A DNA stretch of 64,000 nucleotides from Candidatus Kerfeldbacteria bacterium (GCA_016182555.1 JACPGJ010000008.1:299147-363146), one strand, 5' to 3'. Numbered from the stretch's first letter, positions 12,505 through 64,000 are shown. Notes: generated by a model from the letters alone, not told the origin. Numbers and translations: made by a program.

Positions 12505-12518
12505 AGTGCGCAGAATAA

Positions 12519-13580: not shown

Positions 13581-13661
13581 GTGAGTATACCCTTTTTCTC
13601 ATGACTATTCAATTATCCAATCGTGAATGGTAATAGCTCGTTGTTTGTCATAAAATATATA

Positions 13662-16207: not shown

Positions 16208-16250
16208 GAAAATAGTATAGCCTAATAATCACCCAAATACAAATATTGAA

Positions 16251-18780: not shown

Positions 18781-18788
18781 ATATTCAG

Positions 18789-19730: not shown

Positions 19731-19806
19731 AAAATATGTATCAAATAAAATACTCGGCTATTGTACTCAAAAATAGGCGGGAAGTAAAGATGCTGCGTAT
19801 CCAAGA

Positions 19807-21042: not shown

Positions 21043-21123
21043 AATTTTTCCCCCTGTTAATTATTATATTCCATTATAACAACAAGTGGGATGAACAAGC
21101 AAATTCAATATGATGAATGAAAA

Positions 21124-21606: not shown

Positions 21607-21642
21607 ACTATTTATGAGTATATCACAAAGCAGAAAAAATGA

Positions 21643-31600: not shown

Positions 31601-32007
31601 AATCTGCTGACAGAAGTACGAATTTGAAAAAGCTGCTCTGGAGCCGGATGCTTAAATAGGCGTGCCTTTTTTTTAATAAATTGATTTGTTGTTGTATCCA
31701 ATGAGAGGACATCTGCTTTCTCTGGCATATCTGCAATTTTCATCACCCGCCCGTTTGCTAATTGTATTAACGTATCTGGAACAAGGCAATGCGCAACGCC
31801 CACCGTTCCTTGCACCAAGTGCGTGTCCAACAACTCTTTTAAATTTCCAAGCTTTCCGGCCTTTTTATAGAGGTGCACCTTGCTGTTCTGTGTATCCATA
31901 ATAGCCAAACCCGCTGAATCGTAACCTCTGTATTCCATCCGCTTCAAGCCTTCAAGCAAAATAGGTTTTGCCTCTTGTTTTCCAATATAACCAATGATTC
32001 CACACAT
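28654..32007 (-). CDS. glmS: Glutamine--fructose-6-phosphate aminotransferase (GlmS) interrupted by a 505-aa intein with LAGLIDADG endonuclease domain
   Basis: N-term MCGIIGY (Cys1 nucleophile) ... GVAH | CLVPDTL...LVSHN | SRWATHG. Extein halves reconstitute the GlmS glutaminase motif; SIS domains and C-terminal ...VTVE present. Intein ~30274..31788 with LGYFIGDGHA and LRGIFDAEGT motifs. Confidence 0.93.
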   Translation of the reverse strand: MCGIIGYIGKQEAKPILLEGLKRMEYRGYDSAGLAIMDTQNSKVHLYKKAGKLGNLKELLDTHLVQGTVGVAHCLVPDTLIQLANGRVMKIADMPEKADVLSLDTTTNQFIKKKARLFKHPAPEQLFQIRTSVSRFTSTENHRMLIVRDGHIEEKYARDIQPGDILCAPKKISLRGQKISFICQEPQRYWQLTSKTIEVVRNTMAQQEINVRGLANVSGISSSFIYHFLRQERHAQEYSTRRFLKTLSLPFPLEGMTPVNSIHGNFVQLPRRSSSELMQILGYFIGDGHAHERCVRFKDTRKAVLEQYRELIKTVFGITGRIVPLKGVAAFLLEVNSTEVVAWLKTNILERRRAFYDEIGQLPDRELRKFLRGIFDAEGTIRVRAGQVSLAMIDGDFVGRIQQWLLRFGMMSSVCIQKKNIQQKRPHATYIVSMSGADSITRFHKEIGFTAPEKQKKLQRVLEQKSAMNVTNSYAMLPWDKTEIATQLKKIGIRGAAYRQLHGKGSPSRGTIEQFFQLLSVQQSAHPYIQQLQQLFTGELVFQKVTEVQTVRSTFPYVYDLEVSGTENFIANGLVSHNSRWATHGEPNDTNAHPHSDCGDEIFIIHNGIIENFSKLKQRLIQEKHTFKTATDTEVLAHLIEAYYKKCSLEQAVSRALKEVVGTYGLAVFSSREPNKIVAARLGSPLILGIVNVGEYIVASDLSAILPHTREVVYLEEAEMVTVTRDGYTITTLDQQHIEHPVSRVEWTAAQAEKNGHEHFMLKEMLEQPEVILNGLRGRLIEEDGIAHLGGFNENIKRWKNIERIIIVACGTASYASKVGEYMLEEYAEIPVEVEFGSEFRYRKPVLDEKTAVVLVSQSGETADTIASLREAKRRGVFTFGLVNVIGSTIAREVDAGMYIHSGPEKAVASTKVFTGMLNMFALLTLALGRQRNMSLVTGQRIAKELMGIPEKMQTIFQQSDNIAEMAKKYSSYDHALFLGRKYNYPVAVEGAHKLKEISYVHAEGYPAGEPKHGALALIDDRFYSIFIAPEDSVYQKNISNIQEFKARHGRVLVITTEGNTEMQALADDVIYIPKTLEMLTPMLSIIPLQLFAYHVAVLRGHDVDQPRNLAKSVTVE
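30274..31788 (-). mobile_element. GlmS intein (Cys1 ... His-Asn, +1 Ser) with double-LAGLIDADG homing endonuclease domain
   Basis: Residues 74-578 of the ORF; codons verified manually at both junctions (tgc at 31786-31788; aat/tcc at 30271-30276). Confidence 0.85.
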
Positions 32008-36680: not shown

Positions 36681-39600
36681 TTACGCACATTTCGAATAGC
36701 CGCATCCATGGCACATCATGCATCCTTCAGCCATAGCGAGTACTGATCCGCACTCTGGGCATTCTGGTGCCACTCCGGCATCAGCAATAGAACTCGCTTT
36801 CATCGAAATGGTTGTTTGATGGGTGGTTGCCGTATCTGTTTGCGTGACGGTTACGGATTCTTGCGTTTTCACTGGGCTACTGTTGCCTAATAATTCATCT
36901 GCTGTTTGCAATGGTGCTGGCGTCGCGGCAAACTGTAAATTCAACGTGCCTTGAGCAGAATTCACATGGTTAGCCAGTACCTGAGCAATCGCATCAGCAA
37001 TCGAGAGAATTTGACCATTCTTTCCCCACGTTGGTGCTGGGCCACGAATACCTTTAATTTGATCTACCACTGTTTCTACTGGAATACCAGAACGCAATGC
37101 CAAAGAAACTAAACGGCAGATCGCTTCTGATTTCGCGGCAAAAAACCCGCCCGATTTTCCAATAGTCGCAAACACCTCAAATGGTCGGCCAGCTTCATCG
37201 TGGTTAATAGTCACGAACATTGTACCGTAACCGGTTTTAATTTTATAGGTGAATCCAGGCACCATCTCTGGGCGAGAACGTGGTGATGGAGGTGTTAAAC
37301 CAGGCCCCGTGTTCATTGGTTGGGCAACTGCAGGTGCTGCAGCAGCGAATTGAGCGGGAACCGCTGTTTGTACCTCTTCTTTTTTCACTTCTTTTTTATC
37401 ACCAGCATCTTTTTTATCTAAAGATTCCAATACAGAAATATCACGAGAGCCATCACGATAATAGGTCACCCCTTTGCATCCCATTTTGTACGCTTGCATA
37501 TACAATTCTTTCACCTGTTCCATGGTATGTTCATTTGGCGCGTTCACCGTTTTGGAAATAGATGAATCAGTATATTTTTGTGCCACAGCTTGCATGTTCA
37601 CGTGTTCCATTGGACTCAGCTCCTTGGCACTCACAAAATATGCTGGTTTTTCTTCTTCTGGCACATTCGGGTGTGCTTTTCGCCACTCTTCATATAATGG
37701 ATGGTAGACAATATGTTCTCCTAAACGATCTTTCCGTTTGAAAGCAAAATCATATACCGGTTCAATACCAGAACTGACGCCGGCAAGAATACTCGTTGTA
37801 CCAGTTGGTGCTTGGGTAAGAATCACCGCATTACGCACGCCGAATTGTGCAATATCGGCTTGTAAGTCGCGCGGTAAACGTTGAATAAACTTCCCTTGCA
37901 TATATTTTTCGCTTTCAAAACCGGGAAACGCTCCTTTCTCTTTCGCAATTTCCATAGACATGCGGTAGGATTCATCGCGAATCACCCGATAGACCTCTTC
38001 ACACCATGCGACAGCTTCTTCTGATCCATAACGAATCTTCATTTTAATGAGCGCATCGCCCAAACCCATGGTACCCAAACCGGTACGACGAATTTTTTTC
38101 TGCATCTCTTCATTTTCTTTGAAGAAGTACGGAGTTGAATCAATCACGTTATCTAAGAAGCGAATCGCCGTGTGCACTGTTTCTTTGAGCGCAGCGGTAT
38201 CAAAGACCCCATCGTTCACAAATGCTGCCAAATTCACCGCACCCAAATTACACACACTCCATGCGCCAAGACCTTGTTCCCCACAATTGTGCACTATTAA
38301 CCCATTGGCTGCAAAAGAATGTGTCACTGGTTCTGTCAGATCATACACCATTTCCTGACCAAGATGCTCTAACCCGACAAATGTCGCTACAAATTTTTGT
38401 GTATATGGCCCATCGGTATATTGACTAAGTAATTTTGTTAGCTTTTGTTGTTTTGCAGATGATAAAAATCCTACGGATGTAGCAAATATCTTCAACCCGG
38501 CCTTGCTAATCACCAAATCATGTTGCGCCTGACAAGGATATGATGCTAATCCACCGCGACCATCGGGCAGTTCTCGCACTTGTTCCATGCGCCGATTCGC
38601 ATACAAACGACTCACGATACCAAAATTTAACAGTAATTGTTGCACTTCTTTCAATAGATCTTCTGAAATAGAAGTGAGCCGAATACTCACACCTTTTTCT
38701 GGTGAACCAGCGACATGTCCATCGGCAGTAAACAACCCTTGCAAAAATCCCTTCTGCATTTCTGCTGTGCCTTCCCATACTGGTTGTGGCACACGCAACT
38801 TCGATTCTACCGTCATCCCTACGTTAGTGAATATCTGATTCAACCGTTGGGATGAAATCCGAGCTTCATCACGGCCGGCAACTTCGGCAACAGTCACCGC
38901 AACAGATGAATGTTTGCCATTGGTATTGTTGGTTGAAGCGTTAATCGCACCATTAACGGCTTGAACAAGCCGCGGTGCTACTTCTCGTTTTTCTTCACCA
39001 AAAAATGACAGTACCGCCGTATGCTTAGATTGATTAAAATGACCATCACCGATAAACCAGCCTAACACTTGACCCCAAGATTGATCACCGGTGGTCCCAA
39101 AACCGCCAACGCGATCAAGTAATAATATCTGATCACCTGTTTGCAAATGCTGCGCTTCTACCCAACCACGTGCTGTGCGTACTTGATGATTGGCCGTCAG
39201 TTTGAGTTCATATCCTTCTTTGGTTTGTAATCGATACACATCTTTGATGCCCGTTTCAATAATTTGCGATGTGCGCTCCGTTGACTGTGCACCCAAACGA
39301 CTATCAATAGTCAAGTTCACTTGCTGTTGCGCCTCGTATAATGCTTTGATCGTTTTGAGCCCGTCGGTCGTTGAAACACGCGTATCGCCCGTGACGCACG
39401 GATTCACACAAATAATTTTTTCAAAATACCACGTATTTGATTCCTTGTTATAACGCTCCATAAACACCAAGCCCGGCTCACCAGATGCATGAGCAGATTC
39501 GCAAATCAAATCCCACAATGTGCGGGCTTTGATTGTTTTATAGACTTTACCTCCCCATTTTAAATCCCAATCTCCGTTCTGTTCCACGGCTTCCATGAAC

Positions 39601-40205
39601 CGATCAGAAACACAGACAGAAAGATTGGCATTCGTGACCAAACCCATGGTGCGTTTTACGGTAATAAACTCTTCAATGTCTGGGTGATCGTCATTCAGCA
39701 TTAACATCAGTGCACCGCGGCGAGATCCACCTTGAATCACCAAGCCAGTCGCATGCGAATACAACCCACCAAAAGACACCGCACCAGAAGCAGTACCATT
39801 CACTCCTTTGACATACGCACCACGTGGACGCAGTGAAGAAAGGTTCACACCCACGCCGCCACCACGAGACATAATTTCGACCATGGTTTTCACTGAATCA
39901 AAAATGCCACCGCGACTATCTTCTGGAGATGGGATGACATAACAATTATAGAATGTGAGGTCTACACCAGAACCGGCGCCAGCCAAAATACGACCACCGG
40001 GTAAAAACTTGAATCCTTCCAAAGCCTGATAAAACTTCTCTTCCCATTCTTTCTTTTTTTCAACCGTGGTTTCAATGCTGGCAATACCGCGAGCAACGCG
40101 GTGCCACATCTGTTCGGGGGTATCTTCAACACGACTCCCGTTTTCATCTTTGAGTGCGTAGCGATCAAAAAACACTTTTTGGCGCAATCCAGTAAGGTGC
40201 TCCAT
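36681..40205 (-). CDS. nrdJ: Adenosylcobalamin-dependent (class II) ribonucleotide reductase NrdJ, interrupted by a 371-aa intein
   Basis: Active-site motif split as ...ICVNP | CVTGDTRV...LIVHN | CGEQGL (NPCGEQ of class II RNR). The gene start (40203-40205) was confirmed by eye to be cat/ATG. C-terminal CxxC...CxxC tail (CPECGS...CMMCHGCGYSKCA). Intein 38286..39398 with LGWFIGDGHF and LQGLFTADGHV. Confidence 0.9.
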   Translation of the reverse strand: MEHLTGLRQKVFFDRYALKDENGSRVEDTPEQMWHRVARGIASIETTVEKKKEWEEKFYQALEGFKFLPGGRILAGAGSGVDLTFYNCYVIPSPEDSRGGIFDSVKTMVEIMSRGGGVGVNLSSLRPRGAYVKGVNGTASGAVSFGGLYSHATGLVIQGGSRRGALMLMLNDDHPDIEEFITVKRTMGLVTNANLSVCVSDRFMEAVEQNGDWDLKWGGKVYKTIKARTLWDLICESAHASGEPGLVFMERYNKESNTWYFEKIICVNPCVTGDTRVSTTDGLKTIKALYEAQQQVNLTIDSRLGAQSTERTSQIIETGIKDVYRLQTKEGYELKLTANHQVRTARGWVEAQHLQTGDQILLLDRVGGFGTTGDQSWGQVLGWFIGDGHFNQSKHTAVLSFFGEEKREVAPRLVQAVNGAINASTNNTNGKHSSVAVTVAEVAGRDEARISSQRLNQIFTNVGMTVESKLRVPQPVWEGTAEMQKGFLQGLFTADGHVAGSPEKGVSIRLTSISEDLLKEVQQLLLNFGIVSRLYANRRMEQVRELPDGRGGLASYPCQAQHDLVISKAGLKIFATSVGFLSSAKQQKLTKLLSQYTDGPYTQKFVATFVGLEHLGQEMVYDLTEPVTHSFAANGLIVHNCGEQGLGAWSVCNLGAVNLAAFVNDGVFDTAALKETVHTAIRFLDNVIDSTPYFFKENEEMQKKIRRTGLGTMGLGDALIKMKIRYGSEEAVAWCEEVYRVIRDESYRMSMEIAKEKGAFPGFESEKYMQGKFIQRLPRDLQADIAQFGVRNAVILTQAPTGTTSILAGVSSGIEPVYDFAFKRKDRLGEHIVYHPLYEEWRKAHPNVPEEEKPAYFVSAKELSPMEHVNMQAVAQKYTDSSISKTVNAPNEHTMEQVKELYMQAYKMGCKGVTYYRDGSRDISVLESLDKKDAGDKKEVKKEEVQTAVPAQFAAAAPAVAQPMNTGPGLTPPSPRSRPEMVPGFTYKIKTGYGTMFVTINHDEAGRPFEVFATIGKSGGFFAAKSEAICRLVSLALRSGIPVETVVDQIKGIRGPAPTWGKNGQILSIADAIAQVLANHVNSAQGTLNLQFAATPAPLQTADELLGNSSPVKTQESVTVTQTDTATTHQTTISMKASSIADAGVAPECPECGSVLAMAEGCMMCHGCGYSKCA
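38286..39398 (-). mobile_element. NrdJ intein at the catalytic-cysteine site, with LAGLIDADG endonuclease domain
   Basis: Residues 270-640 of the ORF; junction codons verified manually (tgc 39396-39398; aat 38286-38288, tgt 38283-38285). Confidence 0.85.
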
Positions 40206-47354: not shown

Positions 47355-48593
47355 TTACGAATTAGTATTGTCGTTATTGCTATTGTTGTTGGCATTACCA
47401 TTGGTATTCTTCGATTTCGCTGTATAGGTAAAACTCGCCACCATCATATCAAAGGTCGTACGGAAGTGAATAGTTGTTGTTGTACCATAATTATACACAA
47501 TACCAATGATATACTGATCATTTGCCAAATAATAGGTTAAACCATTATTCACAACAATACCCTCTAGCCCACCGACCGTTGTAGTTTCCAAATCATCCAC
47601 CGTGATATCACTATAGAGTGATGCGTACCACTGAGCAGCACTTTGGTGCTTTGTATTTTCGGTTACAATGACTTCCACAAACTCCCCTTCAATCGTGTCT
47701 GGAGTAAAAATAATCTCACTATTACTGTCGTTCAACGATTCCACTAACCACTGTGCCGGATAATCAATTTTCCAAGAAAATTCGCCATTCTTTTCTTCAA
47801 TAACCAAACCACTATTCAACAAACTCTGGTTCGCTTTTGTTGGAGAGTATAGGTTCGCTACTTCCGTTCCGTCGATATACCCATCTTTATCTGTATCCGG
47901 TAAGCCCGATTGGGTGCCATAGATTTTCTCTTCTTCATCAGTTAAATGGTCTTTATCTTTATCTGAAGCATCGGTCACTTCTTCACCATTCGTTGGCGTG
48001 TTGGTATTGATTGCTGTATTTGTATTGCCATTGATATTGGCGTTCAGGTTAGTATTGGCATTGGCGTTTGCGTTGGTATTATCATTGAGGCCAACGTTGG
48101 CGTTCTGATTTGCTGGTTGGTTTGTATTAGCCGGATTCGTATTCGTGTTGGCATTTGCCACAGATGAAGGAGTGTTCGTATTATTGGTTTGCGCTGGAGT
48201 ATTGCTATTTTTATTTGTCTGTACTGGTTGAGCCTTTTGTTGCAACATAAATACCACCACGACACCAACGACGACTAAAATAAAAAGGATAATCGCTATG
48301 AACAAGAACAATTTCTTTTTTCCACCACGAGCAGAACCGGTTTTTGGAGGCATAAAACGCTCCGGCATCGTATAGACTCGCTCCGGCGTTGGTGAACCCT
48401 GGCCAGGAATAGCACCAGGCCCAGCTGCACCCGTCGTATTTAAAACTGGCACATTCATTGGCCCAGCATTTTGGTTGGGCAATGGGTAAGGTGTTTGTGC
48501 TTGCATCGGAACCGCAGGAGAAAATGGTTGCGGTTGTGGTGGCACAGGTTGTGGTTGTTGAGGCATTCCTGGTGTCTGTTCAAACATAGGCAT
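47355..48593 (-). CDS. Bitopic membrane protein: Pro/Gln-rich N-tail, TM, Asn/Thr low-complexity spacer, TSP3-like Ca-binding repeat, C-terminal globular domain
   Basis: MPMFEQTPGMPQQPQPVPPQPQP..., TM LFLFIAIILFILVVVGVVVVF, NTNTN... low complexity, DTDKDGYIDGTE repeat. Confidence 0.6.
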   Translation of the reverse strand: MPMFEQTPGMPQQPQPVPPQPQPFSPAVPMQAQTPYPLPNQNAGPMNVPVLNTTGAAGPGAIPGQGSPTPERVYTMPERFMPPKTGSARGGKKKLFLFIAIILFILVVVGVVVVFMLQQKAQPVQTNKNSNTPAQTNNTNTPSSVANANTNTNPANTNQPANQNANVGLNDNTNANANANTNLNANINGNTNTAINTNTPTNGEEVTDASDKDKDHLTDEEEKIYGTQSGLPDTDKDGYIDGTEVANLYSPTKANQSLLNSGLVIEEKNGEFSWKIDYPAQWLVESLNDSNSEIIFTPDTIEGEFVEVIVTENTKHQSAAQWYASLYSDITVDDLETTTVGGLEGIVVNNGLTYYLANDQYIIGIVYNYGTTTTIHFRTTFDMMVASFTYTAKSKNTNGNANNNSNNDNTNS

Positions 48594-49207
48594 TATTGGT
48601 TATTGGTGTTTGCTTGTTGAATCACATCTGGCACAGCGAGCATTTTCCCGCTGCCGTTGGGATTATAGAAATTGCGTACCTCTTCGCCATCGGGAAAGCC
48701 ATCCTTATCGGTGTCTTTCTCGTTCGGATTGGTAGAATAAATCTTGACCTCTTGCCGATCAGACAATCCATCATGATCCGAATCCACATCTTTCGGGTCG
48801 GTGCGATAATTTTGTTCTTCAGAATCTAATAATCCGTCGCCATCTGAATCCACAATCGTACCATTCGTATTGGATGCAGCATTAGCCGCTGCATTATTCA
48901 ACGGCTGCACATGATTTAAGTTCTCTTCCGTAACAGGAGCAGATCCTTGTTGCCGACCAGACCAATACTGCCAACCCACAAACAATAAGGCTATAAGCAA
49001 TACCACCCCTGCACCAATCATCACCCATAAACGTTTTTGTGAAATAGACCGTCGAGGCGCCTCTGAATCGATAGTCGTATCGATAGTCGTTGGTACAGCA
49101 TGGACAATAGCTGGAGTAGGCGGAGTAGGATTCACCGAATCAAACAAGTCTTCCACCGGCCCCGGTTGCTGATCATTTGGGAATGTCGACGGTTGATTTG
49201 TTGGCAT
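48593..49207 (-). CDS. Bitopic membrane protein with Pro-rich N-tail and three TSP3-like (DxDxDG) calcium-binding repeats
   Basis: MPTNQPSTFPNDQQPGP..., TM, DSDGDGLLDSEE / DSDHDGLSDRQE / DTDKDGFPDGEE; 1-nt overlap with next gene. Confidence 0.6.
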   Translation of the reverse strand: MPTNQPSTFPNDQQPGPVEDLFDSVNPTPPTPAIVHAVPTTIDTTIDSEAPRRSISQKRLWVMIGAGVVLLIALLFVGWQYWSGRQQGSAPVTEENLNHVQPLNNAAANAASNTNGTIVDSDGDGLLDSEEQNYRTDPKDVDSDHDGLSDRQEVKIYSTNPNEKDTDKDGFPDGEEVRNFYNPNGSGKMLAVPDVIQQANTNNQ

Positions 49208-49213
49208 AGAGAC

Positions 49214-52200
49214 TTAAGGAGTAATAGTATACCACGTTCCTCCTGGGTCAAATTGACTCGTTATACCATAATTATAACAAGAACATTCAGCATTTGAAAT
49301 ATCTTCACACGCATCAAATATCGCTGTCGTGTCGGTATATGCCCCTTCCCCATCATATTCTAAATGAGCATAAATGGAAGCGGTTTGGGAATCGTCAGGG
49401 TTATTCGCATCGACTTTCCACATATACGTAAAGGAATTCGCTGGGCAGAAGAAATGCTGGTTGACGGTATCCCAACAAGTTCCGCCTTCTTGGTCATAAT
49501 ATGCATTATCTTCGGGTGCAGACGGGCAATCCTGCACATGTTCTTCTCCCTCATAAACCCACGGCGTTGATCCGGCGTTCCAAGGGTCAGCTTGATCGGC
49601 AGCATAGAAGATATTGTACTGATCGGTTGGCAATGTTTGACCGAATAGATTACCCAGTGCTCCTTGCCAAGATGGCCACACGCTGGTCGTCATCGTTTTC
49701 ACATACGAACCAAATGTATCACTTTGTGGTCGTGGATAATACCCGTGTTGCGCATAAAAATCATTTGCCAAATTACTAATGGTGGTAATGTCATTCACGC
49801 GCTTGGTGTCACGAATCAATTTCTCTTGGTCAGAATTTTCACATTCCGCATGGCTCAAATTCATGTTAAACCGAACGTTATTGATCAATTGATCGGCAAT
49901 TTTCAATAGGGTCTCTTCGTCGCTAAACGTAAAAAGATAGATGTTATTATAAATTGTTCCATCTAATACATTGCTAGCAGCAACATAATAACTTAATCCA
50001 TCTTGTACCGCTTCATAGCCGTTTACTTGCAATGAAGAGACCTCCCCTGGGTTTGGTACATTTTGAGCATACCATTGGTCTGGGGTGAGGTCTTCGGTGT
50101 TTGGATACACACGAATACCAACCACCTGTTCTTCATTTTCTGGGTTCACAAACAAATATTGTCGGAAAAAATCTCCATCCGGATCAGTGGTAATAATTGG
50201 TTCTTCTGTTAAAGTAGGTAAGCCATTATCTTTACAGTAAAGCAAGTCAAAATTTTGCCGTAAATCATCACTTTCATCTGTATTCGCATATTCCCACACA
50301 TTGTCTTCTCCGCAGAAAAATACATTCACATTGGCTGTAACATCATCCACAGACCAATCTGCTTCCGTGGTGGGAGTTGCCGTGACCGTAATGCCATCTT
50401 CGGCATGATTTTCATCACCGGCCGTGACCGTTTGGGTTTCGGCATTCGGATCACTGCCTAGCTCAACCCAAGCGGTATTATTACAACGCGCATCGTCTTT
50501 ATATGGGCTCCAGGTATATTCCCAACCCATGATATTTGTGGGAATAATTTCTTGATCATCTGATGTATGCATACTCACCGTAAATGTGGTTTGTGCTCCC
50601 GATGAAGTAAACGTATACGTAGCTGTATCACCTTCCGAAGAACTCCCATTGTCATTATTGATAAGTACCAGATGATCTGGTTCACATTCGTTAGCTGCCG
50701 TCATGAAATAGATCTCTTGGGTGCCTTGCTCCACAGCCAGCGTATTGGCTTCGCTCACGATTCCGGTGTCTGTATCTGTATTACTCACGAACGTCAATCG
50801 ATATACCGTATTTGTTTTCCAGCCATCATTTGGCGTCACGGTGATTGTTTTTCCATCTGCGCTATCAACCGTAATCGCAACAACCGTATCATTAGCAATA
50901 CCTTCAGAAAAATCATCGGTTGAGTAACCATCTTCATAGTCTAATGCGTTGAGTCTGACCGTATCGGTTGCCGAATCGCCGGTCGCCAAAAAACCAGTCA
51001 TCGGTTCACTAAATACCGCACTAAATTCTCTATTTGGACAAACCTCCGTATCACCATTGACTGGATCAGAAGAAACAAATGTTGGTCTTTCTGCACAATA
51101 GGTTTCGCCAGTATCATCCACGACACATTCTCCATCACTACCACACACAGTATCTTCTGTTCCTTCCGTACATTCACCGCTAGAATCATCATCGCACACA
51201 CCATCTACACAATAATATCCCTCTTCACAATCATCGGCGGTGATACAAGATGTACCAAAATCTAACCCATTGCTCAAACAAGCATTGACCGACACCACTG
51301 CTGGTCCAGAGGTGGCGCCATACGGAACAGTGGCAGAAGATTTGCCTGTTCCCACATACGTATAGTTGTCACCACTAATATAATCGATGGTATCATCAAA
51401 CGTACTTTCCGGATCAGCACCTTCTACTACCTCATCAGTAAATAAATCTCCTGTACTTTGGCCATCGGCTGGGTTTCCAAATTGGTCACCCATAAATGTG
51501 ATGGAATCGCCATCCTGAGTTCCCTCCGCTGAAGCGGCATATCCTTCAACCGAAGAGAGCTTACACAATACCGGTACTCCGGAATCTGGCACATCGGCAC
51601 CACTGCTACACTGTGCCGTGGTAGAAAAAGTTTTATCATCATTACTATTATACCCATTATTGGAAACCACCACCGCATAAGACTGCCCTGTATCTAACGC
51701 TTCCGGTACATTGGCAATAATTTGCGTATTTGACCACCCATCGGTGCAATACAATGCCGCTTCCTCACCACCAAATGTCACCGAGGCATCGGAATCATAA
51801 GATCCAAAAAAGCAGCCGTTAATCGTTGTGGGTCCACCAGCAGGACCGGAATCTTGTACAATGCTTGTCACCACCGGTGTGCACACACCTTCTTCAGAAC
51901 AGGTAGCTTGGTCACTGCCGCAGGATTCCTGACATTGTTCATCTGTTGTACAGGTATTACAAAACTCCGCAGCTTGGCAGATACCATCTCCAGAACAGCA
52001 GCCGCTGCCGCATTCATTATTGGCGCTACAAGAAACCGAAAACTCTAATGAGTTGGAACAATATTCTGAAGCAGCAGCACAATCCACATCTCCACCTTGT
52101 GTTACGGCACGGAACCCATCTTCTCCACTCACCGCACCAGAGGCTACTTCTGTACTTACGCGCTCTGGTGTCCAGGCAGTTGCTTCTTCGGACGCAGCAA

Positions 52201-55200
52201 CACGTGTACCGGAATCCGCTTCCGTTCCATAATCATCATCACCTAAAAAGCTTGCGAGTCCTTCTTCGTCACCCAATGCTTTTCCATAGATCGTTACAGC
52301 ATCTTCTTCTGCGCCTGCTTCTGGGCTAATAGCACAAATACCGGGGTAAAAATTTTGATCAATATGATAATCCGTACCGGCTTCCGTCGAATCACCATAT
52401 TGTGTTTCTACTTGTAGTTTATAATCCTGTGTTGGTAAATCGAGCGGCATTTCAACAATAATTTGACTATCATCCCAGGTATCTCCACACGTTGCGCTAT
52501 TTGGCCAATCAGTTTCCGTTGAAGTTGCACCATCCAGCGTATTCCAGTACACATTTCCTTTTTGAGAGCCAAACATACACCCTTGAATAGTCACCCAGGT
52601 ACCCTGAATCGCACTATTTGGCGTAAAACTCTTAATCACTGGGGTACAATGTCCGGTATCGGTATTACATGTAGATGTGTTGCCACTCCCATCGCTGCAC
52701 GATGCACAGTCTGCATTGGTCGTACATGCACCAAGATCAACAATAAATTCCGCATCATCTGTTTCCAAATCCACAGCCGTTTGAATCGTTGCCGTTCCTT
52801 CATTCTCTGCATCATCTCCAACAACAAATATTTCCATCAGTGGATCATGATCATCTTCACCGGTCGCAAATTTCGCTACCGTATGATCTGCTGGGTCAGT
52901 GCTCGGAATACTCCAATTCCAACTATACGAAGAACTATCCAGTAATGCACAAGCCGGGCCATAGGCATTTCCGCTATATACTTCACTCTGACCATCCGCA
53001 TTTTTAATGGTAGATCTGCTCGGAGAAACATTCACACTCTCAATCGCACACGGCGTTGTGGTGTTATCGGTTTTGAAATGCATGGTATATGCACTTTCCA
53101 TGGCAATACCGGAGGTACCGGTAATACCAGTGGTGAGCGTCAACTGGTACCACGTATTTGGTTGTAAGTAAGATGAATCTGTCCCGGGTCCATCAGTTTG
53201 CCCATCCTGATTACTATCTTGAACTGTTCGATCAATGGCATATTGGAAACCGTAATAGTTCGTACTACCAGAAAGATATGACCACTCCGTATTCGTAAAG
53301 TGCCCATAAACCGGCAATGGTGAAAATGCACTATTGAATGTGTCTCCAGCGTTATATTGTTCTAAAAAAACCGTATCGCTATTGAATGTATCGGTGTTAA
53401 TTTGTTGGTCAAACAGTACCCCAAGAGCAGCATTGATACACGCCCGTTCTTCATTCGGTTGTGGATTTGGTGAAGGGTACACATCTGCTTCGGCATCGCA
53501 AGAATTTAATTCGGCAACACGTGGCCCAGCACTGCACGGGAAATTGTATTCACGACCATTACTACTCAAACCGGTATCGCCATCATAAATTGTTACCCAA
53601 TAATCACCAGGGGTCATGGATTCATTTGTCGTGCCTTGAATAGATGTATCCGTCCAGTCACCGGAAGGAGTTTCCGGATGAAAATAGACGCTAGAATCTG
53701 CCAAAGAAGTAAAGGGTACCTCGCTTCCACCTTGAGCAGTTCCAAAACCATCGCCGGTAATGGTAAAGCTGGCTCCAGCGGAATTATCACAACTGGGCAC
53801 AATTTCACATAAGTTCGGCCGAACATTATCTGAGTAGGTAAATTTTTGAAGATCCGAATAATGGCCATCTGCATGAATCACCTGGATATAGCCCACATCA
53901 CCCGTAACCCATTGGTGTTCTCCGGTGGCATCAGTATAAGTTTCTGGTGCAATCGCCACAATTTCATCATTGGTCCATACATTACCGCAGGCCGTTGGTT
54001 GCGCCATGGTGGATGTGCGAGTACCATCCAAGGAACGCATAATCACGGTGCCAGGCGTATCACCATAATTATCTCCACTCATCGTAATATATTGACCAAC
54101 TGCCCCATCACTTGGATCTACGGATTGAATATACGGGCTATACACATCAACTTCAGAAGATGATGGGTCACTTTCTTCTCCAGCCACACTCACGCGCAGC
54201 GTGGAATCATTCGTGCCGACTGGCGTACGCAATGATAATTGATCGCTGCGTTGATCTGCTTCATCCATACAAATATCTCCAGCCGACGTATTATCTTGCA
54301 TGTTACCGTAATGATCGGTATTGAAACAGGTATTCACGGTTTCTGCGGCGTAAATATTGCCATCTTGAAAAATGACCTCGGCATGCGGCGCCAAATACAA
54401 ACCTGATATGGCGAGTGTGCCTTGGCCATATTCCACGCAAACACCGGCTTCGCAGCTACCAGAGCCACATTCGGTATTGGTTGTACAACTTTGACCGCTG
54501 TGTAAGCCGGCATAGTCACCATAATAATCTCCACCAGGATTCACCGATTCAATCACCGGTGTACAGGAAGCATTATCTCCAGTTTCCCATGTGATGGGGT
54601 CTTCAGTTGCACCCGCGGCCTCATCAAAACCATAAAAGTTATCCACGGTGGAACCTTCAGCAATACCGTCACCATCGCCATCGAGTGCGTTTCCACAATA
54701 ATCGGTAAGCGCACCTGCAAAATCGTTACTGGCATCGCCACCATATAATCGCGTACTATAATATGAAAAACTATTCAACGTGGTTTCTGGTCGAACTTGA
54801 GCGTAATCAAAATCTCCACCGAAACTCCACCCTTTTAATGCGAGTGGGTCCGCCCAATCTGGTGCAAATGGCACATCTGGTGTACCGGCGCTATCTAAGA
54901 CAAATGATTGATCATCGTTGAATGTGGACGTCAACATTGGCTCAGAAAAATCGAAGTTAATCACTGTATTCGTACAGACCTCTGCTTCACCATCTGCCGG
55001 AAATGGTGAATTGGAATGAACTTGTACTGTTGGTGGTGTCTCATCTTTTTCACTACCTGTCGTAAACTGCCAAATATAGGAAGAGGTGAGCGCCAACCGA
55101 TCATCAATACCATCATCTGGCGTATCGTCATAACTGAATACACCATCAGTTCCACCCACAATAACCGCTTCATACGTGGTGTTTATTTCTAAATCTGTAT

Positions 55201-55936
55201 CTGGAACAAAATTGAATGTCGAGGTGGTGTCCCCCGGACCAAATGCAATAACGCCAGCAACCGTATCACCCACACAGCGGTTTTCCTGACACAAGCCTGA
55301 CCCACAAACATTATTACTTGAACATTCCCCGCCGTCTGCTACACCCCCAGGAATATGGAGGTACCAGGTATCTGGTGTCACGGTACTGGTATCAATATCT
55401 TTGCTCATGCGTACTTGAACGGCACAGAGGGAAGCACCCGTTTCTCCTGATTCCGGATCTGTAGACAACACATAAAAACTGGAATCGCTGGTGGGAATAT
55501 ACCCACCACCACTCGTGCCGCTAGCATCATCTATAGACCCACCAGTTGCATCACTAAAAAACCCAATAAGCCAGAGCACCAGGCCCCATGAGACCATAAT
55601 AATCACCAGGCCAATCCCCGCATTGCGTAATACCGCCTTGGCTTTGTTCACTTTATCTGGGTTACCGGCGGAGGTCAGCCACATGTAGCCGCCATAGATA
55701 ATAAAAATAACCGCCACCAAGGCCATGAGCGATAGAGCAACATTCACAATATCTACCACGATGGAAATAATATCGTTATTTCCTAAAGAGCTGGCAATAC
55801 CGGCGTAATCTGTTGTTATTTGGGCGTATGCAGGAGTGACAGTTGCAAATATTCCGAAAAGAAAAAAGCTCATGGCGGTAAAACAACCACGCATGGCTTT
55901 TTTCAGATTTCTATTTTTCGGAAGACGTTCCCGCAT
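49214..55936 (-). CDS. Giant (2240 aa) cysteine-rich surface protein: signal peptide + pilin-like double-TM N-domain, then repeated PSI-like Cys modules each followed by IPT/TIG-like domains
   Basis: SP MRGCFTAMSFFLFGIFATVTPAYA; two hydrophobic helices flanking YGGYMWLTSAGNPDKVNKAKAVLRNAGIG (TrbC/VirB2- or T4SS-pilin-like topology). At least five CxxxxCGSGxC modules followed by TPVI(x)S(x)xP...G...VTIxG..FG segments. Confidence 0.7.
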   Translation of the reverse strand: MRERLPKNRNLKKAMRGCFTAMSFFLFGIFATVTPAYAQITTDYAGIASSLGNNDIISIVVDIVNVALSLMALVAVIFIIYGGYMWLTSAGNPDKVNKAKAVLRNAGIGLVIIMVSWGLVLWLIGFFSDATGGSIDDASGTSGGGYIPTSDSSFYVLSTDPESGETGASLCAVQVRMSKDIDTSTVTPDTWYLHIPGGVADGGECSSNNVCGSGLCQENRCVGDTVAGVIAFGPGDTTSTFNFVPDTDLEINTTYEAVIVGGTDGVFSYDDTPDDGIDDRLALTSSYIWQFTTGSEKDETPPTVQVHSNSPFPADGEAEVCTNTVINFDFSEPMLTSTFNDDQSFVLDSAGTPDVPFAPDWADPLALKGWSFGGDFDYAQVRPETTLNSFSYYSTRLYGGDASNDFAGALTDYCGNALDGDGDGIAEGSTVDNFYGFDEAAGATEDPITWETGDNASCTPVIESVNPGGDYYGDYAGLHSGQSCTTNTECGSGSCEAGVCVEYGQGTLAISGLYLAPHAEVIFQDGNIYAAETVNTCFNTDHYGNMQDNTSAGDICMDEADQRSDQLSLRTPVGTNDSTLRVSVAGEESDPSSSEVDVYSPYIQSVDPSDGAVGQYITMSGDNYGDTPGTVIMRSLDGTRTSTMAQPTACGNVWTNDEIVAIAPETYTDATGEHQWVTGDVGYIQVIHADGHYSDLQKFTYSDNVRPNLCEIVPSCDNSAGASFTITGDGFGTAQGGSEVPFTSLADSSVYFHPETPSGDWTDTSIQGTTNESMTPGDYWVTIYDGDTGLSSNGREYNFPCSAGPRVAELNSCDAEADVYPSPNPQPNEERACINAALGVLFDQQINTDTFNSDTVFLEQYNAGDTFNSAFSPLPVYGHFTNTEWSYLSGSTNYYGFQYAIDRTVQDSNQDGQTDGPGTDSSYLQPNTWYQLTLTTGITGTSGIAMESAYTMHFKTDNTTTPCAIESVNVSPSRSTIKNADGQSEVYSGNAYGPACALLDSSSYSWNWSIPSTDPADHTVAKFATGEDDHDPLMEIFVVGDDAENEGTATIQTAVDLETDDAEFIVDLGACTTNADCASCSDGSGNTSTCNTDTGHCTPVIKSFTPNSAIQGTWVTIQGCMFGSQKGNVYWNTLDGATSTETDWPNSATCGDTWDDSQIIVEMPLDLPTQDYKLQVETQYGDSTEAGTDYHIDQNFYPGICAISPEAGAEEDAVTIYGKALGDEEGLASFLGDDDYGTEADSGTRVAASEEATAWTPERVSTEVASGAVSGEDGFRAVTQGGDVDCAAASEYCSNSLEFSVSCSANNECGSGCCSGDGICQAAEFCNTCTTDEQCQESCGSDQATCSEEGVCTPVVTSIVQDSGPAGGPTTINGCFFGSYDSDASVTFGGEEAALYCTDGWSNTQIIANVPEALDTGQSYAVVVSNNGYNSNDDKTFSTTAQCSSGADVPDSGVPVLCKLSSVEGYAASAEGTQDGDSITFMGDQFGNPADGQSTGDLFTDEVVEGADPESTFDDTIDYISGDNYTYVGTGKSSATVPYGATSGPAVVSVNACLSNGLDFGTSCITADDCEEGYYCVDGVCDDDSSGECTEGTEDTVCGSDGECVVDDTGETYCAERPTFVSSDPVNGDTEVCPNREFSAVFSEPMTGFLATGDSATDTVRLNALDYEDGYSTDDFSEGIANDTVVAITVDSADGKTITVTPNDGWKTNTVYRLTFVSNTDTDTGIVSEANTLAVEQGTQEIYFMTAANECEPDHLVLINNDNGSSSEGDTATYTFTSSGAQTTFTVSMHTSDDQEIIPTNIMGWEYTWSPYKDDARCNNTAWVELGSDPNAETQTVTAGDENHAEDGITVTATPTTEADWSVDDVTANVNVFFCGEDNVWEYANTDESDDLRQNFDLLYCKDNGLPTLTEEPIITTDPDGDFFRQYLFVNPENEEQVVGIRVYPNTEDLTPDQWYAQNVPNPGEVSSLQVNGYEAVQDGLSYYVAASNVLDGTIYNNIYLFTFSDEETLLKIADQLINNVRFNMNLSHAECENSDQEKLIRDTKRVNDITTISNLANDFYAQHGYYPRPQSDTFGSYVKTMTTSVWPSWQGALGNLFGQTLPTDQYNIFYAADQADPWNAGSTPWVYEGEEHVQDCPSAPEDNAYYDQEGGTCWDTVNQHFFCPANSFTYMWKVDANNPDDSQTASIYAHLEYDGEGAYTDTTAIFDACEDISNAECSCYNYGITSQFDPGGTWYTITP

Positions 55937-59347: not shown

Positions 59348-62300
59348 TTACTCTGTCGTCGAAAATGCCTGCCATTTGGTAAACGCCGAGCAAGATTTCT
59401 TTTTGCATGCCTTCACGCGTACCTGATAGTTGGTATTTGCAGACAATTTTTTGATCTCTTTTTGAGTTTTCTTCACTGTGGTATATTTCGTCCACTGTTT
59501 CTGTTTTTTTACACCGTTTGGCCGTACCTGCACCACATATCGGGTAATTTTTTTCTTGCCCTGTGGTTTCTTCCATGTAGCAAGTGCAGATTCATCGGTG
59601 ATATTCTTCACCCGTAAGTGACGCGGTTTATTGATCTTTACTCCAGCGGCAGTTTTTAATTGATTGTTGTACACAATACCCACTTGGGAAAAATGCTGCA
59701 AAGTGAACGTAATGGAGCCCTGGGTTTCATCACCTTCAATGAGGTCTTGTGATGCATTGTCCACATCTTGCCACGCACCAAGTTCCTCGTCCCAATATTT
59801 TGGCACCAGAATAGATTGATCCGTAATACCCAACCGTTCTAACGAATCTTTTGTATAATTCAGTGTCAACGTGATCGCCGAATTGAAATCTCCGGAGATC
59901 AATACACCGTCGGCATCATAAACTTCCAATTGACGTGCCGGACCAAATGGTGAATCAAAGGATGTTTTAATGGCGTTCAATTCCGGTTCAATGGTAATAG
60001 TGACGTTGCCGGAGTTCTGAATTGCTCCAGCGGGTATATCGAGCTGGAATCCACCATCGTCAAGGACAATCGTTTTTGCTTGCGACGAGTCGAATGTTTC
60101 GGTTACTGAATCTGGAATTTCAAATACCGATTCACCCAAAGTAACATTTTTCGTAATATTGTCATCATTTTTCCCCACATTCACCTCCACATCATCCTGC
60201 GTATTGTACCATACACGCTCACCATTATCATTCACGATTTCCGTGCTGCACCACAGGTGCCAAGTGCCTTCCAACGCATTAAGAGAAAATTCATTATCGA
60301 AACTTTCATCCCAGGCACTATACCCTTCTTCTGCCCATGCACCGCACCAGAGACGATCCACATCTTCTGCGGCCAGGCCAGATGCTTCAGAGAATTTCGC
60401 CTTTCCGGTAATCGTTGCGGTAGCTTCACGAAATGTAAAGTTCAGTGTTTGGTCACTCGATTTTTTGGTAATTTTCACACGCTGGGATTCCGGGCCAATC
60501 AGGTTGGAATAATCGGAATGTACGCCAACCCAACATTCATATTCGTGGCCAGTGACGAGCCCCACAACCGCCACACCGTCTTGGCCAGACTGTGAACCAT
60601 TTTCAATCACGCGTCCGGCATCAAAATCTCCCTTAGCACTATCTTCCAATTCCGGCCAGTTGCCACAACCTACCCAGGCATTTGCAACCGGGTCTCCATT
60701 ATTATCTTCCAAAAATGCGGTCACCGAACCACTCACTTTCTGAACGGTAATCGTTTTCGTTTTCGTTTCTCCTTCGGCAATGGTCACATCTTTTTCCTGT
60801 GCCCAACTGGCGATATAGTCATTGCGATCTTCAAACCACACACCCACACGATAGCTTCCTGGCGCAACGCGCAATGTTCCCACGCCGCCTTCTGGGCGCG
60901 TATCCGACCACCCACCATCTTCACTATTGGCGTAGATTTGTGCGTTATCGGAATCAATGAATTCATTATCCGTATCTTTAATATTCACCGTGATCGTTGC
61001 TGAACGTTCGACTAACGTGAATTCTAACGCCACATCTTCACCATCCGTAAATTCTTGCTGCTGTTCTCCAATGGCTTGATAATTTTGATCGTTAATCCAG
61101 ACATTGCAAAAATATTCCCCTCCAATAGCACCAAAACTACCGGTACCATATTCCACAGAGCCGCCAAAACCATAGCCTTCATTACTCCAACAGTTTGCCC
61201 AGCCGTTTACTGCTGCCACACTTCCATCTTCAGCAAGCGTCGTCACATTGACCGTCAGTGTCGTTGCTGTCAGCGTAAAGGTCAACGAACCGGTATCACC
61301 AGATTCAACGGTCACCTTCTCTTCCGGGCCCGCATAAATATATTGAGTCGTGCTCCACGTAGATGGACGAATGGTCCAATCTCCCTCATATAAATACAAA
61401 ACCGCTTCTCCGTTTTCGTCAGTTTGCGCATTATTCCACCCACCTTCTTGCTGCCAAGCGTCTACATACAAATCAGGAACAGGGTTGCCATTGTCATCCA
61501 ACAATGTAACGGTATATACCACATCGCGTTCTTTTAATGCAATGGTGCCAAGGTCTAGATCCTCATCCGCTTGTACCGTGACTGTTGCTGCATCCCAATA
61601 GGTGTGCTCTTCTGCATTATTTGAATTATATTGAACAAAATAGGTCGTACTGCCTATAGAGCGTGCGCGCAACGAAGTGGATTGAATATCAGAAGAATTG
61701 CCTCCTACAACGGCGATAGAAAAAGTGCCATCTTCAGCATTTACATTTCCACCAAACCAATATTGGTCATTCCACATTGATACCCAACCAGAAGCCGGAA
61801 ATGAACCATCCGGATTTGTAAACACGGCGGTGACGGTTGCATCTGCGCGCTGTACTTCAAAATCAAGTGTTTCAGATTCTTCGGAAGAATCATCGGCAAA
61901 CGACACATGCTGACAATTATTACCATTGGGCATATACCAATCTTTCTCAACACGGTCGCCATTTTCATCGTATTTATCACCTAAACAAATATCATATTCG
62001 CCTCCAGAAATAGCCATTGAATATACACCATTTTCATCAACGTCCGCGCTACTCCATGAACCCGTACCGTTGGCGTTCACAGAAACAGCGGTGACCGGAT
62101 CACCAGTATCGGCATACGTAATCGTTCCATTCACGATTTTACTTGCTTCCTCAACCATAATATCTTGGTTCACGGTTGAGCCGGAATAGGTAAAGGATAC
62201 AGAAGTGTTAAATAAACCAGTGGAAGTATCCGGGTAAACTTGAATATTCACCGTATCCCCAGAGTCAAACCCAGGATTTTGAACAGTATAATATCCCCAT

Positions 62301-62932
62301 TCATCGCTATTAAACCAGGCATAGAGCGACCAATCCTCATTATACACATTGCCATATAACTGCACTGGGTTGCTATCTGGATCCGTCAGTGTCCCATACG
62401 CCAAAGGAGTGCCAAGAATAAATGGATCACTCACGGTGGATATGTTGTCACCGTCTGACACTGAAGACATATCCGTTCGAGATGCTCGAATAGCGAACCG
62501 ATAGCCGCCCACATCCGATGGGTTCACCACATTATTGAGTGTCGTGGTATATGTACCCGCAGGAAGATCGCTCGTATTGGAAAAATCAAAAATAAAGGAA
62601 TTATCGCTAGCAACAATATCTCCATCAATGCCTGTCAACGTGCTATTGCTGAAATCACCCTGGCAAGCGGTATAATCAGCCATACAATTCGTAGGCGAAA
62701 ATTCAATATTAAAACCCGTGAGCGCATCTATAACTGCTGCTGTTGTAAAACTCACGCTGTAATTGGTGGTCGCTCCAGGGGTAAGCGATTCTGGCGTGAC
62801 CGAGATGCTCGTAATCGTTTCGTCTGGTATTGTTGTTGCGTACGTTGGTGTGGTGGTGGCCATACCAAATAGAACGAATGAGGCGAGTGTGATGCTTTGA
62901 ATCACTCGCCGCACAAAAAATCTGTTGTTCAT
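59348..62932 (-). CDS. Secreted 1194-aa multidomain surface protein (Ig-like/CarboxypepD_reg-like beta-sandwich repeats) with C-terminal Lys-rich FN3 domain
   Basis: Signal peptide MNNRFFVRRVIQSITLASFVLFGMATTTPTYA; T/S/D/G-rich beta-rich repeats; C-terminal PRHLRVKNITDESALATWKKPQGKKKITRYVVQVRPNG...YQVRVKA (FN3). Confidence 0.65.
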   Translation of the reverse strand: MNNRFFVRRVIQSITLASFVLFGMATTTPTYATTIPDETITSISVTPESLTPGATTNYSVSFTTAAVIDALTGFNIEFSPTNCMADYTACQGDFSNSTLTGIDGDIVASDNSFIFDFSNTSDLPAGTYTTTLNNVVNPSDVGGYRFAIRASRTDMSSVSDGDNISTVSDPFILGTPLAYGTLTDPDSNPVQLYGNVYNEDWSLYAWFNSDEWGYYTVQNPGFDSGDTVNIQVYPDTSTGLFNTSVSFTYSGSTVNQDIMVEEASKIVNGTITYADTGDPVTAVSVNANGTGSWSSADVDENGVYSMAISGGEYDICLGDKYDENGDRVEKDWYMPNGNNCQHVSFADDSSEESETLDFEVQRADATVTAVFTNPDGSFPASGWVSMWNDQYWFGGNVNAEDGTFSIAVVGGNSSDIQSTSLRARSIGSTTYFVQYNSNNAEEHTYWDAATVTVQADEDLDLGTIALKERDVVYTVTLLDDNGNPVPDLYVDAWQQEGGWNNAQTDENGEAVLYLYEGDWTIRPSTWSTTQYIYAGPEEKVTVESGDTGSLTFTLTATTLTVNVTTLAEDGSVAAVNGWANCWSNEGYGFGGSVEYGTGSFGAIGGEYFCNVWINDQNYQAIGEQQQEFTDGEDVALEFTLVERSATITVNIKDTDNEFIDSDNAQIYANSEDGGWSDTRPEGGVGTLRVAPGSYRVGVWFEDRNDYIASWAQEKDVTIAEGETKTKTITVQKVSGSVTAFLEDNNGDPVANAWVGCGNWPELEDSAKGDFDAGRVIENGSQSGQDGVAVVGLVTGHEYECWVGVHSDYSNLIGPESQRVKITKKSSDQTLNFTFREATATITGKAKFSEASGLAAEDVDRLWCGAWAEEGYSAWDESFDNEFSLNALEGTWHLWCSTEIVNDNGERVWYNTQDDVEVNVGKNDDNITKNVTLGESVFEIPDSVTETFDSSQAKTIVLDDGGFQLDIPAGAIQNSGNVTITIEPELNAIKTSFDSPFGPARQLEVYDADGVLISGDFNSAITLTLNYTKDSLERLGITDQSILVPKYWDEELGAWQDVDNASQDLIEGDETQGSITFTLQHFSQVGIVYNNQLKTAAGVKINKPRHLRVKNITDESALATWKKPQGKKKITRYVVQVRPNGVKKQKQWTKYTTVKKTQKEIKKLSANTNYQVRVKACKKKSCSAFTKWQAFSTTE

Positions 62933-63082
62933 AGATTCCTCCTTAATGAATAATTATCTCTAGTATATACCTCAACAACAAAAGTGCAAAGTGTATTCAT
63001 CCACAGCCGCACAGGCGGTCCCTTATACCCTTGCCGTGGAGATACATTCTCAGTATAATGACCGTCGTCTATCAAAAAAAAT

Positions 63083-64000
63083 ATGGCAGAAAATAATTTC
63101 CCCATTGAAGAAGAAAAAAATAATCCATCGCCAGCAATATCGCTTGAGCCGCTCACACCAACGAACGAATCTGAACCCGCGCATGTTGACCTACACCCTG
63201 AACACCGGAAGCGACACCGTGTACGAAATGCGATATCTATTTTGGTTGGATTGATTGGAATTGGTATGATCGCGTTTGGTGCGTATGCCTATTCACTGAC
63301 AAAAAATGAAATTGTTGATAAAGAAAACCAAACGAATTTTTTTGGACAGTTACATCGCATTATTGATAACGACGTAGAACCCTTGCAAGGTGAACAAGAT
63401 GATCGAATAAATATTGCCCTATTTGGTATTGGTGGCGAAGGTCATGAAGGTGGACAACTCACAGACACCATGATGGTCGCTTCTATTAAACCATCTACCC
63501 ACCAAGTGGCGCTCATCTCGATTCCACGTGATTTACAGGTCGCTTTTTATAATGAGAAAGATACGAAAGAACAATACCCTGAATATTATAAAATGAATTC
63601 TGCCCTATTTCGCGGTGGCATTGACTTGGCGATTGATAAAGTAGAAGAGGTCACCGGATTGCCGATGCATTATTATGTGTTGGTCGATTTTGCTGGCTTT
63701 CGAGATTTGATCGATACCGTTGGTGGGTTGGACATTACGATTGACACCAGTTTTAGCGATAGCCAATATCCCAATTATAATTATGGGTATTTGCCCACGT
63801 TGTACTTCAAAGCCGGCCCTGAACAGATGAATGGAGAACGTGCATTGCAATTTTCTCGTTCACGGCATGGCACTAATGGTGAAGGTAGTGACTTCTCTCG
63901 TGCACGCCGACAACAAAAAATATTAGAAGCATTACGTGAAAAAATGCTGTCAACATCGACATTGTTGAACCCAGCAACATTAAGCGGCATATTAAAAGAT
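63083..64000 (+). CDS. LytR-CpsA-Psr (LCP) family cell-envelope phosphotransferase, C-terminally truncated by window edge
   Basis: Manual translation from ATG 63083: acidic N-tail, TM (ISILVGLIGIGMIAFGAYAY), then LCP core INIALFGIGGEG...TDTMMVASI...ISIPRDL...GGIDLAIDKVEEVTGLPMHYYVLVDFAGF. Confidence 0.85.
   Translation, partial: MAENNFPIEEEKNNPSPAISLEPLTPTNESEPAHVDLHPEHRKRHRVRNAISILVGLIGIGMIAFGAYAYSLTKNEIVDKENQTNFFGQLHRIIDNDVEPLQGEQDDRINIALFGIGGEGHEGGQLTDTMMVASIKPSTHQVALISIPRDLQVAFYNEKDTKEQYPEYYKMNSALFRGGIDLAIDKVEEVTGLPMHYYVLVDFAGFRDLIDTVGGLDITIDTSFSDSQYPNYNYGYLPTLYFKAGPEQMNGERALQFSRSRHGTNGEGSDFSRARRQQKILEALREKMLSTSTLLNPATLSGILKD

Follow-up and report, generated by a model that had tools for sequence, protein, structure and literature searches.

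A strongly basic terminal fibronectin type III domain on acidic secreted proteins of Candidatus Kerfeldbacteria, a candidate module for non-covalent surface retention

Two secreted proteins encoded in a 64,000-nucleotide stretch of DNA from a Candidatus Kerfeldbacteria bacterium (the window, by which we mean the whole stretch analysed) end in a fibronectin type III (FN3) domain of strongly basic character that is joined, in each case, to an extremely acidic body. The isoelectric points (pI) of body and tail are 4.05 and 10.6 in the product of gene A and 4.05 and 10.5 in that of gene B (Table 1). At minimum this is a clean case of secreted proteins whose charges are strongly segregated, in a way that is conserved. 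Both the similarity of the two tails and the charge split lie well beyond chance. The function is what we infer, together with the binding itself, its ligand and the producer's own envelope as the partner: by analogy with known anchors, the basic FN3 may be a portable, terminal module that retains its carriers non-covalently, through electrostatic binding to an anionic polymer of the envelope. This reading is partly supported, and we hold it tentatively, at somewhat less than even confidence.

The window comes from the metagenome-assembled genome of an uncultivated groundwater bacterium of the candidate phyla radiation (CPR/Patescibacteria); it is gene-dense, with a guanine-cytosine content of ~43%, and nearly all of its genes lie on the minus strand. 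Both open reading frames (ORFs) exist as an earlier note on this DNA gave them, and the C-terminal sequences quoted there are correct. Each product is 100% identical to an NCBI protein from a metagenome-assembled genome, named 'fibronectin type III domain-containing protein [Candidatus Kerfeldbacteria bacterium]' for A and 'fibronectin type III domain-containing protein' for B.

The two tails are related to each other. They align with 29% identity over 91 columns (BLASTP E = 3e-6), a result that bears on the earlier note, which had named the lack of a significant alignment between the C-termini as grounds for giving up its proposal. The Smith-Waterman score of 86 compares with a mean of 31.6 +/- 6.2 for composition-preserving shuffles (z = 8.7), and 0 of the 2000 shuffles scored as high; a score so far above the shuffles means that the similarity is not a composition artefact, and this explanation was ruled out. 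The domain had been described as FN3-like; the relation to FN3 holds, and the Pfam matches make it a bona fide FN3 and not merely an FN3-like domain. Against a curated gathering threshold of 25 bits for Pfam fn3 (PF00041), residues 1102-1179 of A score 53 bits (E = 4e-14) and residues 322-387 of B 25.9 bits. The tails form a beta-sandwich of seven strands, superposable on solved FN3 domains. In A the strands are modelled at residues 1104-1191, with a predicted local distance difference test score (pLDDT) of ~85, and the protein ends 3 residues past the last strand; B ends 6 residues past its last FN3 strand. The module is a canonical FN3, with no new fold.

As the earlier note had proposed, both proteins are secreted: each begins with a Sec-type signal peptide, called by eye from the sequence with no predictor. 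In AlphaFold2 models, residues 5-19 of A and 3-16 of B are helical, residues 1-34 of A having pLDDT < 50, and A24 of B is invariant in 31 homologues. The bodies are otherwise unrelated, again as had been claimed. That of A is a string of CnaB/pilin-like domains, within a model that is all-beta with a mean pLDDT of 65. Its best Foldseek matches are the Bacillus anthracis TIE protein, Cna B repeats and Gram-positive pilins, so that as modelled it resembles the stalks of CnaB/pilin/TIE type found in Gram-positive adhesins; Pfam PF13620 is present in its orthologues. The body of B is an orphan beta-sandwich with invariant Cys32 and Cys98 and a very acidic, disordered loop at residues 201-250 (net -19). 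Neither a Pfam match nor a PDB sequence match was obtained for this N-terminal domain, and fold searches with the whole B model (mean pLDDT 79.8; predicted template modelling score, pTM, 0.70) were dominated by its FN3. Within the linker of B, pLDDT falls below 50 at residues 288-293 and 295-303.

We found no conventional means of holding either protein at the surface. Anchor families were read from Pfam and NCBIfam matches at E <= 1, and at this level neither A nor B has an SLH, LysM, CWB2, SLAP, GW-SH3b, choline-binding or other anchor in Pfam; NCBIfam returned 0 families for the pair, so no sorting-signal model matches. There is no LPxTG motif near either C-terminus, the one loose match (IPAGA, residue 966 of A) being internal, and neither protein has a hydrophobic segment at the scan threshold or a transmembrane segment beyond the signal peptide. 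The absence of LPxTG, S-layer-homology and LysM anchors that the earlier note had reported is thus confirmed by Pfam, NCBIfam and the motif scan. Two candidate routes were considered and rejected: an LPXTG sortase substrate, for which the C-terminal motif, the hydrophobic segment and any sorting-signal model match are missing, and a T9SS-CTD, PEP-CTERM or GlyGly-CTERM sorting domain, for which there was neither a Pfam or NCBIfam match nor a terminal membrane helix. The window's other extracytoplasmic proteins are acidic (pI 4.1-4.8) and, unlike A and B, nearly all have membrane segments.

The charge of the tails is exceptional for their fold. The 104-residue tail of A has 23 lysines and 5 arginines (net +24, pI 10.6), and the 101-residue tail of B has net +12 and pI 10.5. 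In a reference set of 1654 FN3 domains, taken from giant multi-FN3 proteins and retrieved with a profile biased towards basic domains, so that the comparison is conservative, the net charge was -1.8 +/- 3.9; 10% of these domains reach +3, 0.8% reach +8, 0.5% reach +12 and none reaches +22. Three orthologues of A (40-52% identity, all from Kerfeldbacteria-like genomes and with proteins from Rifle groundwater among them) have tails of +23, +26 and +41 with the FN3 core residues unchanged, giving +22 to +41 over the four members of the family. For B we found about 35 homologues of ~400 residues, with 28-68% identity and all from Kerfeldbacteria-type contigs (6 loci in a contig profile scan with the B family), and every one combines an acidic body (pI 4.1) with a positive tail (+3 to +31). 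The sign is positive in ~45 of ~45 sequences, and W, Y, L, Y and T of the FN3 core are invariant. That the sign of the charge is kept while the sequence drifts suggests selection on surface charge.

The basic module also occurs on other secreted proteins. Six-frame scanning of the window and 16 Kerfeldbacteria-type loci (~320 kb, partly redundant; loci are labelled L) recovered two more carriers, in answer to the earlier note's proposal that the genome be searched for them. One, in L008, was found by chance in flanking DNA; the other, in L009, joins its FN3 to a PGA_cap domain, a family related to poly-gamma-glutamate. The basic FN3 is thereby found on four unrelated bodies: the stalk of A, the orphan domain of B, the L008 protein and the L009 protein. 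The C-terminal location claimed earlier stands for A and B and fails for the L008 and L009 carriers, where the domain is N-terminal; it is terminal in all four. All FN3 domains in this ~320 kb sample of the lineage are basic and terminal and belong to proteins with an export signal, and no cytoplasmic carrier, which the earlier note had seen as evidence against its view, was observed there, the carriers all being signal-peptide proteins. Two distant homologues of the A body (P0005 and P0006) have other modules at their ends, which indicates that the A tail is modular. A word-indexed search with the A tail alone gave no matches.

The proposal that the tails form a distinct, lineage-specific domain family gained no support from a profile search. 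A profile built from 14 tails matched 52,425 proteins at E <= 1e-3 and so behaves as a generic FN3 profile; the best 150 are all giant multi-FN3 proteins, which head the ranking because it uses the summed score. A metagenome scan with a narrow FN3 alignment found 2 loci, both non-CPR.

Lysine-rich FN3 domains were also seen in four apparently non-CPR secreted proteins: P0048 (3242 aa), P0153 (1767 aa), L014 1795..3465 (plus strand) and L015 151..1221 (plus strand). All four have C-terminal tandem arrays of 2-6 such domains (+10 to +27 each), and no other anchor domain was found in P0048, P0153 or L014 where Pfam matched. The L014 protein joins a BspA-type leucine-rich repeat, a Listeria-Bacteroides repeat and FN3; the L015 protein, from a human-gut metagenome, matched no Pfam family. 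These arrays may represent the same principle used in Firmicutes.

If the domain retains its carriers, the proteins would be exported by Sec and their signal peptides cleaved. The strongly anionic surface would repel the acidic body, which the flexible linker of ~15 residues would keep off the tail, and the polycationic FN3 (+10 to +40) would attach electrostatically to an anionic polymer in the producer's own envelope, so that proteins with no membrane or covalent anchor would stay at the cell surface. Candidate ligands would be a wall glycopolymer attached by LytR-CpsA-Psr (LCP) enzymes, a polymer resembling teichoic acid or poly-gamma-glutamate, or the anionic head groups of lipids. The FN3 of A would form the end nearest the cell in a stalk like that of an adhesin or S-layer protein, and the modelled layout is compatible with a bipartite S-layer protein made of an anchor and a surface domain; the FN3 of B and of both N-terminal carriers would serve as the tether of an enzyme or binding domain. 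The LCP, GT4, murJ and DUF4012 genes to which the earlier note had drawn attention are present in the window, and as read from the sequence this set suggests that the organism can attach glycopolymers to its wall. Lgt and FtsW/RodA genes are there too. The LCP gene, which runs past the end of the window, is the divergent neighbour of gene A, and an LCP-like gene adjoins a B orthologue elsewhere (L016, 11239..12444). A DUF3048 protein adjoins the B orthologue in two divergent genomes (L002, 11327..12550; L010, 8690..9901), and not in the window.

Several observations weigh against retention by the basic FN3. The giant multi-FN3 proteins behind the reference charges may not represent the single FN3 domains of bacteria. 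Tail charge in the B family varies widely and falls as low as +3, which is little for an anchor that works by electrostatics alone. The families also differ in which basic positions they conserve: K1102, K1109, K1121, K1149 and K1186 in the A family, and K344, K358, R377, R381 and K402, all invariant or nearly so and lying on strands C, C', F, F and G, in the B family. The two therefore have no shared binding site, and what their sequences point to as common property is overall positive charge, not one site. A hidden Markov model (HMM) of the B tails gives A tails 7-25 bits and generic FN3 domains up to 41.1; one of the A tails gives B tails at most 20.8 bits and generic domains up to 31.9. 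By these direct scores the two tails are related no more closely to each other than to generic FN3. The window encodes a 427-residue acidic signal-peptide protein (23862..25145, minus strand) with neither a membrane anchor nor a basic tail, so not every anchorless secreted protein has the module. Genes for teichoic-acid synthesis were not identified in the window. Across the genomes compared, no neighbour is conserved for A or B and the DUF3048 and LCP adjacency is inconsistent, so that gene context gives plausibility and no proof. The 427-residue protein, as a separate observation, has only weak BNR-like matches.

The L008 domain scores 59.5 bits with the B-tail HMM and 41.7 with the A-tail HMM, above all ~4000 generic domains. 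Since it outscores them on both models, it bridges the A and B tails, and a Kerfeldbacteria FN3 clade with A and B as divergent members is plausible at the sequence level.

The FN3 could instead be a binding tip for an external polyanion, be it the envelope of a host or partner, extracellular DNA or RNA that the cell scavenges, or a negatively charged mineral or biofilm matrix, which we consider unlikely. CPR bacteria are often episymbionts, and the charge evidence applies equally to such a tip; the A body resembles adhesin and pilin stalk domains, the window has ComEC DNA-uptake machinery and a giant pilin-like surface protein, and cationic-patch FN3 domains of animals bind heparin, fibronectin FN12-14 (1FNH) being among our matches. 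An outward-facing tip would, however, leave A and B with nothing to hold them on the producer. It also sits uneasily with the orientation of Gram-positive stalk adhesins, in which the C-terminus is normally the wall-proximal end, and with the presence of the module on the enzyme-like PGA_cap protein, where a host-binding tip is less natural.

We give a similarly low probability to the possibility that this is an ordinary spacer or solubility FN3 with no binding role, its basic composition being a quirk of the lineage that arose, for example, by partly offsetting the acidic bodies or through relaxed evolution rich in Lys codons. Extracellular enzymes of bacteria commonly use FN3 as a linker (PMC8610288). 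The tail profile cannot be told from that of generic FN3, the F-strand motif Y-x-V-[KR]-V-x-A is itself generic, and the poor conservation of charge magnitude in the B family fits as well. A spacer would be internal, however, and all 4 architectures have the domain at a terminus; nor would a quirk readily give a positive sign in ~45 of ~45 sequences when only 10% of reference domains reach +3. Charges of +12 to +24 cannot neutralise bodies of -56 to -123. The tail DNA of A has 39% A compared with 28% in the body, which might point to relaxed evolution, but this richness merely follows from the AAA and AAG codons of lysine.

Quite improbable, finally, is a charge-complementary protein contact in which the FN3 docks on an acidic body, either its own or that of a neighbouring molecule, for instance as head-to-tail or S-layer-like lattice assembly or as an intramolecular latch on loop 201-250 of B: the bodies are extremely acidic (-56 and -123), as is that loop, the conserved basic face that the B family has on strands C, C', F and G is more like a defined interface than diffuse charge, and the two-domain B model reaches the pTM given above, but co-evolved specific interfaces are unlikely on four unrelated bodies and the flexible, low-confidence linker speaks against a fixed intramolecular dock.

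Elsewhere in the window, gene B lies amid extracytoplasmic thiol-disulfide genes (17594..22975), a neighbourhood that is not kept in other genomes. The 2240-residue surface protein, the TSP3-repeat protein and the membrane protein that follows it (47355..55936) may form a surface-appendage gene set. The two ORFs of comEC overlap by ~200 nt in different frames; a frameshift, a gene that is truly split or a wrongly placed start could account for this.

Table 1. Coordinates of the genes, domains and neighbouring features discussed. Positions refer to the window, except for the L008 and L009 carriers, which are numbered within their own loci.
Feature	Position	Strand	Description
Gene A, ORF	59348..62932	-	1194 aa; secreted, all-beta; pI 4.2; net -99; basic FN3 tail
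A signal peptide, residues ~1-32	62837..62932	-	putative cleavage between MNNRFFVRRVIQSITLASFVLFGMATTTPTYA and TT; n-, h- and c-regions; AxA-like site
A body, residues ~33-1082	59687..62836	-	~10 beta-sandwich domains; net about -123; pI 4.05
A linker, residues 1083-1099	59636..59686	-	low-confidence tether ahead of FN3; pLDDT < 50
A C-terminal FN3, residues 1100-1194	59351..59635	-	net about +23; pI 10.6
Gene B, ORF	19807..21042	-	411 aa; secreted; pI 4.2; net -44; basic FN3 tail
B signal peptide, residues 1-24	20971..21042	-	putative cleavage between MKRNLLLMTAIMLCFSFGSQSVHA and LTV; by eye
B orphan beta-sandwich, residues ~25-287	20182..20970	-	net about -56; pI 4.05
B linker, residues ~288-305	20128..20181	-	low-confidence tether
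B C-terminal FN3, residues 306-411	19810..20127	-	net about +12; pI 10.5
L008 carrier	15840..16763	-	307 aa; signal peptide, FN3 at 35-121 (+12), acidic orphan domain; Pfam 31.6 bits
L009 carrier	12449..13663	-	signal peptide, FN3 at 30-100 (+9), PGA_cap (CapA-like) domain; Pfam 48.3 bits
LCP (LytR-CpsA-Psr) ligase gene	open frame 63062..64000, listed 63083..64000	+	PF03816; 137.5 bits; E = 5e-40
DsbA-like thioredoxins	18046..18780, 22121..22975
MauE/DoxX membrane protein	21643..22140
Thioredoxin-reductase-like flavoprotein	18789..19730
GlmS (glutamine-fructose-6-phosphate aminotransferase)	28654..32007	-	with LAGLIDADG homing-endonuclease intein
Ribonucleotide reductase large subunit	36681..40205	-	with LAGLIDADG homing-endonuclease intein
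Surface protein, 2240 aa	49214..55936	-	net -286; N-terminal membrane region resembling type IV secretion system (T4SS) pilin, TIG, Big_5
TSP3-repeat protein	48593..49207	-
Membrane protein after TSP3-repeat protein	47355..48593	-
ComEC, apparently split	26189..28494	-	DUF4131 + Competence ORF 27061..28494; metallo-beta-lactamase ORF 26189..27259

The genomes of CPR cells are tiny, and many of these cells rely on contact with others. Were retention by a basic FN3 correct, a terminal FN3 of pI > 10 on an acidic signal-peptide protein would be a signature for predicting surface proteomes from metagenomes; it would direct attention to an anionic wall polymer, the product of the LCP and glycosyltransferase genes nearby, and the few known non-covalent wall anchors would gain one built on FN3. 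FN3 is absent from a catalogue of the wall-binding domains of monoderms published in 2018 (PMC5817068). The wider proposition, that the polycationic FN3 is a previously unrecognised class of non-covalent surface anchor that takes the part played elsewhere by LPXTG, SLH or CWB2, single and at either end of anchorless secreted proteins in Kerfeldbacteria and perhaps adopted independently as C-terminal tandem arrays in gut Firmicutes (P0048, P0153, L014), we regard as doubtful.

Compared with canonical FN3 (PF00041), the modules described here carry +9 to +41 where -2 +/- 4 is typical, and they are strictly terminal and sit on acidic bodies. A close functional counterpart may be the teichoic-acid-binding (TAB, SLAP) domain of Lactobacillus SlpA and SlpX, a C-terminal, highly positive and inward-pointing module that binds the phosphates of (lipo)teichoic acid non-covalently (PMC11181022) and that is common to S-layer and S-layer-associated proteins (PMC11181022; PMC5993097). 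The likeness lies in the terminal, positive module; the fold and family are different, with no SLAP/PF03217 match at E <= 1, and the defined YxY...KxxN phosphate site of SlpA has no equivalent shared by the A and B tails. The SLH and CWB2 domains of Firmicutes are a precedent for one swappable module placed at either terminus of many unrelated secreted proteins, the main surface protein among them (PMC5817068; bioRxiv 10.1101/2025.04.02.646754), and S-layer proteins and other surface proteins use such common, swappable anchoring domains (bioRxiv 10.1101/2025.04.02.646754). Those domains, however, are trimers of repeats that recognise specific secondary wall polysaccharides, whereas here we see a single FN3 with diffuse charge.

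On the FN3 scaffold itself, a parallel is the 'cationic cradle' of fibronectin FN12-14, with which the modules share clustered Arg and Lys residues and, if they bind as proposed, a polyanionic glycan as ligand; 1FNH and 3R8Q are among the top PDB matches by sequence and structure. Heparin-binding FN3 domains are eukaryotic and internal to a long array, whereas the A and B modules are bacterial and terminal, and the cradle occupies the A-B-E sheet, in contrast to the strands C, C', F and G that bear the conserved basic face in the B family. The Pro-Pro-endopeptidases of Salinicoccus and Jeotgalicoccus have a single C-terminal FN3 that is predicted to be a Gram-positive wall anchor, a prediction resting on carbohydrate contacts of aromatic residues and not on polycationic charge (PMC8610288). 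The body of A, for its part, is like the LPXTG-anchored CnaB and pilin stalks, and in A the basic FN3 takes the place of their sorting signal.

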